A DNA stretch of 64,000 nt from NCBI GenBank assembly GCA_045616625.1, contig JAZLHA010000012.1:8873-72872 (forward strand), written 5' to 3'. The stretch is from Candidatus Enterousia sp. Lineage in GTDB: Bacteria; Pseudomonadota; Alphaproteobacteria; Rs-D84. The notes beneath the pieces are model-generated. The model saw only the letters and a program-made list of their open reading frames with translations. It had not been told where the DNA came from and searched no databases. Made by a program: the position numbers and the translations under genes. This document shows, in pieces, positions 15,566-18,388 of this stretch. The stretch's first letter is position 1, and each line of letters starts with the position of its first letter.

Positions 15566-15590
15566 TGGTTAGAGCAACAAGAATCTTCCC
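15566..15590. repeat. Degenerate direct repeat of the tRNA-Pro 3' end (possible eroded att site)
   Basis: tggttagagcaacaagaatcttccc versus tggtcggagtaacaagattcgaacc at 18312-18336, 17/25 identical in the same orientation. Confidence 0.35.
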
Positions 15591-15613
15591 AGCAAAAAAC
15601 GATTATTTTGTAC

Positions 15614-16553
15614 CTAAAACTTTTGTTGCATTGTAAATTCAAGGGTTGTTTTGTCATATTCCCTTTGCCAAAGATTTGAATCTCTTTTTGTATAACTGAA
15701 TGTCAATGTTGGTACAAACCCCCATATATCAAATTTATTATTAGATAAAGATACAGAATATCTTTGGGTCATATCTTTTTCTGTCTTTTTAACAAAACCT
15801 GTATCTGATGCCACATATTGTGCCCCATCATAATTTGTCCAATAAAGACTTGGTTCTGCATATATATGAAAACCCCATGGTAATTCTGCACCCAGTCCCA
15901 AACCAATGCTTGGTTGCCAATAACTATAAACATCTGTTATTGCTTCTTCTCTTGTTAAACCAAACCTTAATGAAGAATATATGCTTGAATTAAAGGCATA
16001 AAATAATCTGGCTGTTCCTGAATATGTTTGTCCATCCATATATTCAGAATAATCATCATATGAATTTTCTAAAAACCTTAAATAAACACCTGCTGAAAGT
16101 TTCCTAGTTATATCATAATTGGTATCTAATTTTGCACCATATGACCAATTATAACCTTCACCACCATAAAATCTTCTTGTTGCCATAGGTGCCAACCAAA
16201 CATCACCCTTGAACCATATGTATCTTAGACCAGAACTTGCATAAAAATATAAATCATCAAATTTATGTTTGTCATAAATATTACCATAAAAACCACCTTT
16301 CAATTTCCAAAGACCCATTGACCATTTTAGGTGTCATTGTTAATATTTGTTTTGCATGTTCAAAATCACCTTTCTCAACCAGAGCACCCGCCAATTGCAT
16401 TGCTTCTGTGGTTGTCATAGTAATTTCTTGTGTATCAGAATCTTTTTCTGTATCACTATCGGATCCAGCCCACAAAACAGTGGGCTGGATCAATAACAAG
16501 ATAAATATAAGTATTTTTTCATTATTCTGGCTGATTGGTTTTAACACCACCAA
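15614..16553 (-). pseudogene. Slam-like (DUF560-type) outer-membrane translocator, interrupted by frameshift(s)
   Basis: ORF 16281-16553 carries a signal peptide and a TPR-like helix pair. ORF 15614-16318 is a 234-aa aromatic-rich beta-barrel ending LEFTMQQKF with no signal peptide of its own. The frames overlap by 38 nt. An A6 run follows the coupled ATG at 16522. Confidence 0.5.
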
Positions 16554-17997
16554 AACCCATATTTACCCTAACTTCACCCTCTTTTGAAGGAATACTTTCA
16601 ACATATTGTGCAACACCTGCAAACTCTTCTGGGGCTCCATTAACACCATAATAATTTATTTCAATTTTACCTTTTGAATCTGATTGTTTATCATAACCAG
16701 TACCATTGTAATTACCCGGTTTTTCTATAGTTACAGTCTTAGAGCCACCACCCATATCTTTCAAAGCAAAATTTTCATCTTTTGCTTCACCTGTAAATTT
16801 AAAGTTGACTGGGGCATCATTTGCCGCTTTATAAACTTCAACATCATACCAATTATTTTCACCAAATCCCATTATTAGTGTTTGATCACCTTCAGTAAAT
16901 TTTAATGTAGCAGGTGCATCTAATTTCAACTCATCTTTGGTGTCATCAATACCTTGAACTGTTCCTACTGCTTTACCCACAAAAGTCATTGTAGTATCCT
17001 TATCAGGTGCCACTTTCTTTTCATCATAACCACCAGCAAAAGGTTCATACGATTTGTAATTTCCTATAAACTCACCATTTTCATATTCTTTCAAATCAAC
17101 AAAAAATTGTCCAAAATCTGAATATTTATTCCCGGTGTCCTGACCATATGTTTTAATTGTTGTTGTTCCTTCTAATTTTTTATGTACAGTTTGTCCACCA
17201 TGTTCTTCATCTCTTTCTTGAACAACACTAAATACATTTGTATCTCCTTGTCTTTTTAAATATCCATCATCTGAAGTATCTTGTGTGTCTAAGTGCCCAA
17301 TCTCTTCAGAATTAAGAGCATATGATGTTACACCCACAATTTTATAATCTTTATTCAATTTGAACTTTACTATATCTAACCCTCCTTGTTCATCACCATT
17401 GGATGCAGATGACATAATAAAGTGTGCATTATCTAATGTTAATATATCTGTGTTTCTATGCAATTCATCAAGGTCAAAACTAGCTCTACTAGCCAATATA
17501 CGCTCTGCTGTTTCTTGAGCGTTTCCACCAACAAAACAATTACTACCAGACAACAATTTTAAGGCTGCTTGAATTTTTGTTCTTCCTTTTACTATTTTAT
17601 TATCAATTTGTTCTTGACTATTAAACAAATCAATAATTTCTTGTTCTGTGGTATCATTTTTTGCCAACCAAAAAGCAACATCAACCAATTCTCTTGCATT
17701 ATCATACTTTAAATTACCAGTAGTTTCTTTAGAAAATGCTGCTCTAGCTGTTGTTGCAGGATCATTCAACAAAGTTCCTATTTCATTAAGATACTCAGTA
17801 TCTGTTTCACCAGACATCACAATTTTTTTAACATTTTCTTGCATATCTGCTGGATCTGTAGTTGTCATACTAACAACATTCCTATTACTTGTTCTATAGT
17901 CCATCACTTCACTGTGCACACTGCCACCACCAGAACCACCACCAGTTGCACAAGCTGTTAATGCTAATACAGATGTTAGAATTGCATATTTTTTCAT
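16522..17997 (-). CDS. Surface-lipoprotein candidate (TbpB/fHbp-style lipobox, Gly linker and C-terminal barrel-like end)
   Basis: AAGGAG RBS, then MKKYAILTSVLALTAC/ATGGGSGGGS. The C-terminus is ..EFAGVAQYVESIPSKEGEVRVNMGFGGVKTNQPE. The ORF-track N-terminal extension to 18081 was rejected. Confidence 0.6.
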   Translation of the reverse strand: MKKYAILTSVLALTACATGGGSGGGSVHSEVMDYRTSNRNVVSMTTTDPADMQENVKKIVMSGETDTEYLNEIGTLLNDPATTARAAFSKETTGNLKYDNARELVDVAFWLAKNDTTEQEIIDLFNSQEQIDNKIVKGRTKIQAALKLLSGSNCFVGGNAQETAERILASRASFDLDELHRNTDILTLDNAHFIMSSASNGDEQGGLDIVKFKLNKDYKIVGVTSYALNSEEIGHLDTQDTSDDGYLKRQGDTNVFSVVQERDEEHGGQTVHKKLEGTTTIKTYGQDTGNKYSDFGQFFVDLKEYENGEFIGNYKSYEPFAGGYDEKKVAPDKDTTMTFVGKAVGTVQGIDDTKDELKLDAPATLKFTEGDQTLIMGFGENNWYDVEVYKAANDAPVNFKFTGEAKDENFALKDMGGGSKTVTIEKPGNYNGTGYDKQSDSKGKIEINYYGVNGAPEEFAGVAQYVESIPSKEGEVRVNMGFGGVKTNQPE

Positions 17998-18311
17998 AGT
18001 TTCTCCTTTTATTGCAATAAAATAAAACCACCTATGGGATATTTCATTTGATATGATAGTATTCACAAGGTTGGAAAGCAATATATTTTTAGTGTGATAT
18101 TTATATGATTAACCTGATTAGAAAGATTAAGGTTTTTTATTTTTTCAGATTATTTAATATGTCTACCAATAAAACATTACAATCTTGTACCTGCTCTCTT
18201 CACAAGAATTATGACATGATATTTTGAATATTTTGCTCCATATTTGCTCCAAATCAAAAATACTGATGATATTTTTTGAATATATTATAAGCAAAAATCA
18301 GCAGAAATCCT

Positions 18312-18388
18312 TGGTCGGAGTAACAAGATTCGAACCTGCGACCTCTACGTCCCGAACGTAGCGCTCTACCAGACTGAGCTATACTCCG
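18312..18388 (-). tRNA. tRNA-Pro (anticodon CGG), CCA encoded
   Basis: Manual cloverleaf: acceptor CGGAGTA/TACTCCG, D arm GCTC..GAGC, anticodon arm CTACG-TTCGGGA-CGTAG, TTCGAAT T-loop, A73-CCA. Confidence 0.9.

Follow-up and report, generated by a model that had tools for sequence, protein, structure and literature searches.

The closest described counterparts of the locus reported here are the Slam1 and Slam2 systems of Neisseria meningitidis with their cargo proteins TbpB, LbpB, fHbp and HpuA (PMC5449769). They combine an outer-membrane (OM) translocator, consisting of a TPR N-terminal domain and a DUF560/SlipAM barrel, with lipoproteins that carry a lipobox, a Gly-rich linker, and a handle followed by a C-terminal 8-stranded barrel, and the HpuA gene immediately adjoins the Slam2 gene. 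The same elements, with the translocator in broken form, lie between fabF and mltG in a 64-kb stretch of DNA from Candidatus Enterousia sp., hereafter called the window, which belongs to a 189,804-nt contig derived from a metagenome-assembled genome (MAG). This locus is probably what erosion has left of a small accessory islet at the 3’ end of tRNA-Pro(CGG), which carried a two-gene Slam cassette whose translocator gene is now a pseudogene (Table 1).

Other described systems share part of these properties. PmSLP of Pasteurella multocida (PM1514; PDB 9b3e/9b3h; PMC5449769) is, like the lipoprotein of this locus, a stand-alone Slam-dependent type of lipoprotein with no receptor partner. Cargo of the type 11 secretion system (T11SS) follows a scheme of effector, pedestal and C-terminal barrel, which includes alpha-helical effector classes (10.1101/2024.09.26.615229; PMC8406197) and is matched by the three-part architecture predicted here, and T11SS of cluster 1 are associated with mobile islands (10.1101/2024.09.26.615229; PMC8406197). 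With NilB/NilC of Xenorhabdus nematophila, an accessory locus likewise encodes both a DUF560 OM protein and a lipoprotein for host association. Islands with a P4-type integrase have in common with our locus the insertion at a tRNA 3’ end, a direct repeat at the far boundary, atypical composition, and variable presence. Since every class of proteobacteria is reported to contain Slam homologues (PMC5449769), an alphaproteobacterial host is not new in kind, and a Sphingomonadaceae subcluster of T11SS has been described (PMC8406197). The new host range proposed in a preliminary description of this DNA, made from its sequence, was accordingly overstated.

The lipoprotein open reading frame (ORF) begins MKKYAILTSVLALTAC/ATGGGSGGGS and ends ...NMGFGGVKTNQPE; its position, both termini, the lipobox and the Gly-rich linker were confirmed as first described. 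The protein is full length, with 491 aa compared to 477-514 aa in its homologues. In an alignment of 41 family members the residues L13, A15, C16 and G19 are invariant, as are G451, E458, F482 and G483 in the C-terminal part. With L13, A15 and C16 the protein thus has, by sequence, the lipobox for Sec export and signal peptidase II that is expected of Slam cargo. An AlphaFold2 (AF2) model built on the family alignment (mean pLDDT 88.6, pTM 0.85) comprises a single handle-barrel lobe. When this model was compared with the PDB by Foldseek, the 20 best matches were all Slam/T11SS cargo proteins with prob 1.00, including TbpBs, LbpB and PmSLP (9b3e). Among them, the TbpB C-lobe 5kkx_A was obtained with E 1.6e-6 and a target-normalised TM-score (TMt) of 0.43, and PmSLP with E 3.8e-4 and TMt 0.47. 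Proteins of the same class followed lower down, with hemophilin 6om5 at rank 23, HphA 8glo at rank 24 and the NHBA C-domain 6cuj_A at rank 25 (TMt 0.60). The C-terminal barrel matched 6cuj_A, the TbpB C-lobe and PmSLP. On the predicted structure, the lipoprotein therefore has the handle and C-terminal barrel of Slam cargo, in agreement with the earlier suggestion that its end resembles the barrel of Slam-dependent lipoproteins, and it is predicted to be a Slam/T11SS-type surface cargo of TbpB-like fold.

The bipartite subclass formed by TbpB, LbpB and HpuA is characterized by a receptor partner and two lobes, whereas our model has one handle-barrel lobe and the islet holds two genes only. TonB-dependent receptor families were also not among the listed neighbours in L081-L093, a set of loci from relatives that represents contexts of lipoprotein-family or Slam genes away from the fabF site. 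As a TonB-dependent receptor partner is lacking, the lipoprotein resembles the stand-alone cargos fHbp, PmSLP and NilC rather than the TbpB/TbpA type.

The N-terminal helical domain modelled alone (AF2, residues 26-190) reached a pLDDT of 76, and its best Foldseek match in the PDB had E 0.56 and prob 0.10 in a list made up of ribosomal proteins and similar noise. With no structural neighbour better than E 0.56, an attempt to guess a ligand from the structure of this domain was abandoned. Shorter family members (310-390 aa) lack the helical domain, which fits the T11SS scheme of a variable effector on pedestal and barrel (10.1101/2024.09.26.615229). The family profile, run against 1.84 billion cluster representatives, matched 705 clusters (clustered at 50% identity) with E<=1e-3, 304 of them with E<=1e-30. 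None of the 41 aligned members contains a Pfam domain of any kind, and the lipoprotein has no family match in NCBIfam or PHROGs; weak matches to RPN7, Peptidase_C10 and NGK_0946 were rejected as well below the cut-offs. The family is large and without annotation, its helical N-terminal domain is undescribed, and the earlier view of the cargo as new was fair.

The second gene of the pair had been described as having the layout of a Slam translocator. Its signal-peptide/TPR piece and its barrel piece are both present, but they lie in different frames with a gap of ~149 codons, so that what had been read as a gene appears to be a pseudogene. The DUF560-like nature of the 234-aa barrel ending LEFTMQQKF was borne out by Pfam SlipAM (PF04575), which matched ORF 15614-16318 with E 1.7e-32 and 113.6 bits (cut-off 22), at profile positions 64-287 of 288 only. 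This region shares 61% identity with an intact 442-aa TPR_Slam plus SlipAM protein of L081; intact Slams of relatives have 442-449 aa and combine TPR_Slam (PF24575) with SlipAM. In tblastn, residues 8-68 of the L081 Slam aligned at 16475-16287 and residues from about 212 to 442 at 16309-15617 in the other frame. Residues 69 to ~217 of the intact protein are thus gone through a deletion of ~447 nt, which is not a multiple of three and takes most of the TPR domain together with the first barrel strands. Only ~45 residues of the TPR domain are left (TPR_19 E 0.17), and they are not in the frame of the barrel. The window accordingly contains a DUF560/SlipAM domain recognized by profile, but neither a complete 14-strand barrel nor one ORF that joins signal peptide, TPR and barrel.

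A further lesion was found at the start of this gene. The Slam genes of relatives start with (G/A)TG AAA AAA directly after the lipoprotein stop codon, while in the window the ATG precedes only A6, one base short of the A7 that would bring the signal peptide KILIFILLLIQPTVLWA into frame. The ATG of the TAATG overlap (16520-16522), previously held to open the signal peptide, is in fact one base out of frame with the signal-peptide/TPR segment. The upstream in-frame TTG/GTG at 16547-16553 could instead be taken as the true Slam start, but a frameshift is more parsimonious because in the relatives the homologous position is where the (G/A)TG AAA AAA start lies. Whether the A-run switches Slam on and off by phase variation is moot, since the ~149-codon deletion is irreversible. 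The barrel ORF had been thought repairable, but two independent lesions, one of them a ~0.45-kb deletion, are more damage than one fix would mend. Given these two lesions we regard the translocator gene as a pseudogene, unless the assembly is wrong, for which we see little chance.

At the boundaries of the islet, the tRNA-Pro(CGG) was recovered in its described place by ARAGORN and Rfam (65 bits). The 25-nt repeat of its 3’ end on the far side of the cassette proved real, although its identity to the last 25 nt of the tRNA is 18/25 and not 17/25 as first given. Besides the tRNA itself it is the only match of at least 17/25 in the window, and none of 1000 shuffles of 14672-18311 reached 18/25, which places it far beyond chance. 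Moreover, 15532-15585 aligns over 55 columns to the tRNA-Pro 3’ end plus the native terminator of the closest relative, L001, with a local score of 56 compared to 19.4±2.0 for shuffled sequences (maximum 27, 0/300; z ~18). The hairpin included in this alignment, AAAACCGCG-TTTAT-CGCGGTTTT followed by a T-run, has a minimum free energy of -24.4 kcal/mol (z -5.97); it was not called by a terminator scanner, but folding confirmed it. A match of Rfam Leu_leader over the hairpin (E 0.094, 24.9 bits compared to a gathering score of 50) was dismissed as chance.

At simple sites (L028, L029 and L001) a terminator of the form AAAxxAAACCGGC-loop-GCCGGTTTT immediately follows tRNA-Pro. In the window, unrelated AT-rich sequence stands in its place after ...CCGACCA of tRNA-Pro, and it is the degenerate copy of the tRNA end that is followed by a hairpin, AAAATAAAACCGCG-TTTAT-CGCGGTTTTATTTT. 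We interpret the repeat as the displaced ancestral tRNA 3’ end, marking the distal boundary of the islet, and the hairpin as the ancestral tRNA-Pro terminator, which would have been displaced by the insertion and would now end both the Slam remnant and the convergent orf253. Repeat and terminator together are the scar expected of an element that integrates at a tRNA 3’ end, restores this end and displaces the old one. As had been noted, the islet is more AT-rich than its surroundings: the sequence between the repeats (15591-18311) has 32.3% GC compared to 37.6% for the window and falls into the lowest 1.5% of 2.7-kb windows. The site thus shows tRNA 3’-end insertion with a distal repeat, atypical composition and, as detailed below, absence from relatives.

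The fabF site was compared in 80 related loci (L001-L080). FabF of the window shares 89% identity with its counterpart in an alphaproteobacterial MAG from horse faeces and 71-79% with FabF of many animal-gut MAGs labelled Candidatus Enterousia or uncultured Alphaproteobacteria. The order int-like/acpP/fabF is constant across all 80 loci, while the fabF-mltG interval, as determined in 60 relatives, extends from 138 to 7301 bp with a median of 2.5 kb. tRNA-Pro(CGG) occurs in 57 of the 60 scorable loci with varying position and orientation; the interval is a clade-wide recombination hot spot. Several fabF-mltG intervals among L001-L080 carry an extra tRNA-Pro(GGG). A hidden Markov model (HMM) search with the families detected Slam in 0/80 loci and lipoprotein-family genes in only 2/80, one of which (L020) immediately follows tRNA-Pro genes where its contig ends. 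The pair is consequently not conserved at this site, and the earlier reading of the locus as an eroded tRNA-integrated islet held up in this comparison.

The closest relative, L001, carries other genes in this slot. In L001 (11310-12121), tRNA-Pro and its terminator are followed by a second degenerate tRNA-end copy with a GAATCTTGTT core and a duplicated terminator, after which lies a 151-aa gene of the cytidine-deaminase family (dCMP_cyt_deam_1/MafB19-like, E 1.6e-29). With this deaminase gene, the integration slot holds another cargo in L001 than in the window.

Away from the fabF site, family lipoproteins were found directly upstream of an intact Slam in four independent contexts, with one lipoprotein in L081, two in L084, three in L090 and two in L092. 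Cargo genes of this family thus adjoin intact Slams in these loci and a Slam pseudogene in the window. An integrase fragment lies near the L081 cassette, and a resolvase, a DUF5906 protein and an integrase lie near that of L084. In five contexts a cassette, or what is left of it, directly adjoins a tRNA gene: Pro in the window, Lys in L087, Ser in L088, Asn in L090 and Gln in L092. By a rough estimate, assuming ~1 tRNA per 20 kb, adjacency in 5/7 contexts is far above expectation. The contexts can be arranged as a series of decay, from intact pairs through the window with cargo and broken Slam and L088 with cargo and a Slam stub to L087 with a 3’ Slam fragment only. In L088 (6485-6600), which is represented on 7 contigs, the family lipoprotein P0032 sits just downstream of tRNA-Ser and is followed by a ~80-nt 5’ Slam stub before a PBP5-type gene. 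L087 (4993-5823) retains only the C-terminal 208 Slam codons, ~120 nt after tRNA-Lys and its terminator. Slam decay with retention of the lipoprotein is recurrent, and the window, its translocator being a pseudogene, documents an intermediate of such decay, with the cargo kept and Slam lost, rather than a working system.

Some further observations were made in these loci. The database Slams P0005 and P0019 have internal in-frame gaps. In L088 (4826-4850 and ~4695-4720), 13 nt of the tRNA-Ser 3’ end (TTCGTCTCCGCCA) recur exactly at a distance of 177 nt downstream of the tRNA, and the tRNA end is found once more, inverted, after the terminator. These copies suggest further att-like scars at a tRNA that carries a family lipoprotein. 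In L087 (1405-1968, minus strand), a gene with an Mtd_N domain, beside an 811-aa protein without assignment, lies close to the Slam fragment. Mtd is the major tropism determinant of diversity-generating retroelements.

The gene identities, the lesions, the islet boundaries, the absence from relatives and the linkage to intact Slams elsewhere form the observed basis of the following explanation. An insertion at tRNA-Pro would have brought along a replacement for the tRNA 3’ end, so that the old end and its terminator came to lie 2.7 kb further downstream. In relatives with intact cassettes, following the Neisseria paradigm, the lipoprotein would be exported by Sec, acylated at Cys16 and carried to the OM by Lol. 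The downstream Slam, with its TPR domain and 14-stranded DUF560 barrel, would recognize the C-terminal 8-stranded barrel of the cargo and move it to the surface, where the cargo would present a variable N-terminal domain, helical in our case, on its beta-sheet pedestal. This translocation mechanism, the surface exposure and ligand binding by the N-terminal domain are what we infer by analogy. With Slam a pseudogene, the locus in the window would be unable to export its own cargo.

Several findings weigh against this explanation. No TbpB_B_D or lipoprotein-C Pfam domain was detected in the lipoprotein (E<=1) or in any of the 41 family members (E<=0.1), and sequence searches of the PDB with the single sequence and with the 41-sequence profile were empty. 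Because there is no sequence-level match, membership in the TbpB fold class is derived from the predicted structure, whose TM-scores to TbpB-class structures are modest, 0.43-0.60 when normalized to the targets. These points would suit an ordinary periplasm-facing OM lipoprotein with a generic beta-barrel or lipocalin-like domain that neighbours the Slam remnant by coincidence, and so would the location of P0032 in L088 among housekeeping genes without an intact Slam. We consider this very unlikely, as the best structural matches without exception are known Slam/T11SS cargo, family members stand directly ahead of intact Slams in four unrelated contexts, and even the orphan of L088 keeps a 5’ Slam stub. 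The specificity of the Foldseek list is striking, though the TM-scores are modest and its basis is a prediction. Integrase and excisionase genes are likewise absent among the window ORFs of 15566-18311, and an island-borne integrase is thereby missing, which leaves the scar as the trace from which the mode of integration is deduced. This absence, together with the variability of the interval in every relative and the shifting position and orientation of its tRNA, could also indicate that no insertion took place, that the pair is ancestral in a fast-evolving fabF-mltG interval and was lost elsewhere, and that the 25-nt similarity is fortuitous. Such a course of events is hardly credible in view of the alignment of repeat and terminator with the tRNA end and terminator of relatives over 55 nt (z ~18), the lack of Slam at the site in all 80 relatives, a GC content in the lowest 1.5%, and homologous cassettes at four other tRNA genes.

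The lesions of the Slam gene are in turn known from the MAG sequence alone, and one of them is a single base in an A-run, the classic type of error. The cassette might thus be functional, with a homopolymer miscall and a mis-assembled deletion mimicking decay, and the odd internal gaps of the clade’s database Slams P0005 and P0019 could be assembly noise as well. However, the ~447 nt are lost cleanly without a collapsible repeat seen at the junction, the flanking genes are intact, and independent decay is recorded in other assemblies by the stub of L088 on its 7 contigs and the 3’ fragment of L087, which makes an artefact unlikely. If the translocator is indeed a pseudogene, either a further Slam copy in the genome serves the lipoprotein in trans or the lipoprotein is heading for loss. 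That the whole islet is dead and the lipoprotein a non-functional cargo that has so far escaped lesions is quite conceivable, although we do not favour it. In favour of this reading, Slam has two lesions, a search with the L081 Slam found no second Slam within the 64 kb of the window, and genomes of this lineage are under reductive evolution (PMC12306168). On the other hand, the lipoprotein ORF is full length and has kept its lipobox, the family-invariant residues and a Shine-Dalgarno sequence, and the L088 member persists on 7 contigs after near-complete deletion of Slam, which suggests that the cargo is useful without a Slam in cis. Service in trans is slightly more likely than loss because family members persist as orphans in relatives whose Slam was deleted, with L088 as an example, and because Neisseria Slam1 reportedly serves unlinked cargo genes.

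An eroded Slam islet as proposed here differs from the described systems in several respects. Compared to Neisseria, the cargo has no TbpB_B_D similarity and possesses one lobe plus a helical N-terminal domain instead of a second handle-barrel lobe; moreover, there is no TonB-dependent receptor partner, the intact Slams of the clade are compact (442-449 aa), and the Slam of the window is a pseudogene. PmSLP, which binds complement factor I, has ~215 aa, whereas the lipoprotein has 491 aa and an extra helical domain of ~160 aa. The cargo set of Grossman et al. (10.1101/2024.09.26.615229) was found by BLASTp to known cargo domains, and as our lipoprotein family has no such match, it was probably missed by this set. 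No relation of the family to NilC was detected, Grossman et al. found no NilC homologues, and Xenorhabdus is a gammaproteobacterium. Compared to P4-type islands, the islet is only 2.7 kb long and lacks an integrase, while an integrase-like gene nearby lies outside the islet and is conserved in relatives.

The class of mechanism is already known and the local copy is defective; new are the Rs-D84 lineage, a large cargo family that escapes sequence-domain annotation, an N-terminal domain with no known fold, and small tRNA-associated cassettes with recurrent Slam loss. Candidatus Enterousia belongs to the order Rs-D84, whose genomes are mostly below 1 Mb and for which a partner-dependent lifestyle has been proposed (PMC12306168). 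The Slam/T11SS paradigm is hereby extended to this uncultured gut alphaproteobacterial order of genomes <1 Mb, whose surface proteins are prime candidates for contact with a host or partner. The cargo family, with several hundred clusters of T11SS type, is recognizable only by predicted structure and synteny, and since domain annotation does not reveal it, published cargo censuses are probably undercounts. More speculatively, the family may represent a rapidly exchanging surface repertoire in Rs-D84, borne on integrase-less cassettes of one or more lipoproteins and Slam that hop between tRNA genes, where redundant Slams would be shed and cargo kept and served in trans, and the helical N-terminal domain may be a new ligand-binding fold for attaching to, or scavenging from, a host or partner cell. 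We offer this tentatively, as an idea that may well prove wrong.

Table 1. Features of the islet and its flanks in the window
Feature	Coordinates	Strand	Basis or remark
fabF	18434-19684	-	flanks the islet, upstream of tRNA-Pro
tRNA-Pro(CGG)	18312-18388	-	ARAGORN; Rfam tRNA 65 bits; 3’ end is the proximal islet boundary and integration site
AT-rich spacer, 314 nt, between tRNA and lipoprotein gene	17998-18311	-	presumed promoter region, read from sequence
Lipoprotein ORF, 491 aa	16522-17997	-	intact
Signal peptide, lipobox L-T-A-C (Cys16), then Gly/Ser linker	17950-17997	-	sequence; LALTAC
N-terminal alpha-helical putative effector domain, residues ~26-185	17443-17922	-	DSSP of AF2 model
Predicted beta-sheet handle/pedestal, residues ~191-324	17026-17427	-	DSSP strands; aligns to TbpB and LbpB lobes in Foldseek
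Predicted C-terminal beta-barrel, residues ~336-486, presumed Slam-recognition module	16540-16992	-	eight to nine strand segments, pLDDT >90
Slam/T11SS OM translocator, putative pseudogene, two frames, two lesions	15614-16522	-	tblastn with L081 Slam; Pfam SlipAM
Short ORF, signal-peptide/TPR piece	16281-16553	-	frame differs from barrel ORF
A6 run after ATG, -1 frameshift at codon 3-4	16514-16519	-	three-frame translations of window, L081 and L084
Junction of ~149-codon out-of-frame deletion	16284-16292	-	tblastn and codon-by-codon reading
Premature stop TAA	16281-16283	-	two codons past junction
Barrel ORF, 234 aa, C-terminal end LEFTMQQKF	15614-16318	-	Pfam SlipAM PF04575
Degenerate direct repeat of tRNA-Pro 3’ end, 25 nt	15566-15590	-	18/25; interpreted as distal islet boundary
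Terminator hairpin	15532-15559	-	folding and homology to hairpin after tRNA-Pro in L001, L029 and L028
Convergent orf253, 253 aa	14777-15538	+	between displaced terminator and mltG
mltG	13667-14671	-	last gene of the described order, beyond convergent orf253

In the spacer ahead of the lipoprotein gene, a Shine-Dalgarno sequence AAGGAG lies 7 nt upstream of the ATG, and a promoter scan of 17998-18311 gave consensus-level matches only, not more than in shuffled sequences. On the other side of fabF and acpP from the islet, a 337-aa ORF resembling P4-type integrases (20162-21175, minus strand) precedes acpP-fabF. In essentially all 80 relatives (75 or more) it occupies the syntenic position, with 55-75% identity. 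Domain searches recognize no more of it than the arm-binding and core-binding domains (Phage_int_M, Arm-DNA-bind_3, phrog_1), and PDB matches cover the N-terminal domains only. The catalytic domain was not significant (Pfam Phage_integrase E 0.23), and no HxxR...Y pattern was seen in the conserved C-terminus. This ORF was therefore rejected as the integrase of the islet, being conserved upstream of acpP-fabF across relatives and without the catalytic pattern; from its sequence it looks like a domesticated, probably inactive recombinase beside a hypervariable slot.

A second low-GC stretch of the window (<=34%) at 36900-40700 contains dnaN and the genes of a DAC-domain protein, an AsmA/YhdP-like protein and a pseudouridine synthase; it was rejected as an island because these are housekeeping genes. 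The convergent orf253 has 28% GC and no match in Pfam, NCBIfam or PHROGs. The sole homologue found, with 51% identity, occupies the same position in the closest relative L001, and the fabF-mltG slot probably acquired orf253 separately and at an earlier time.

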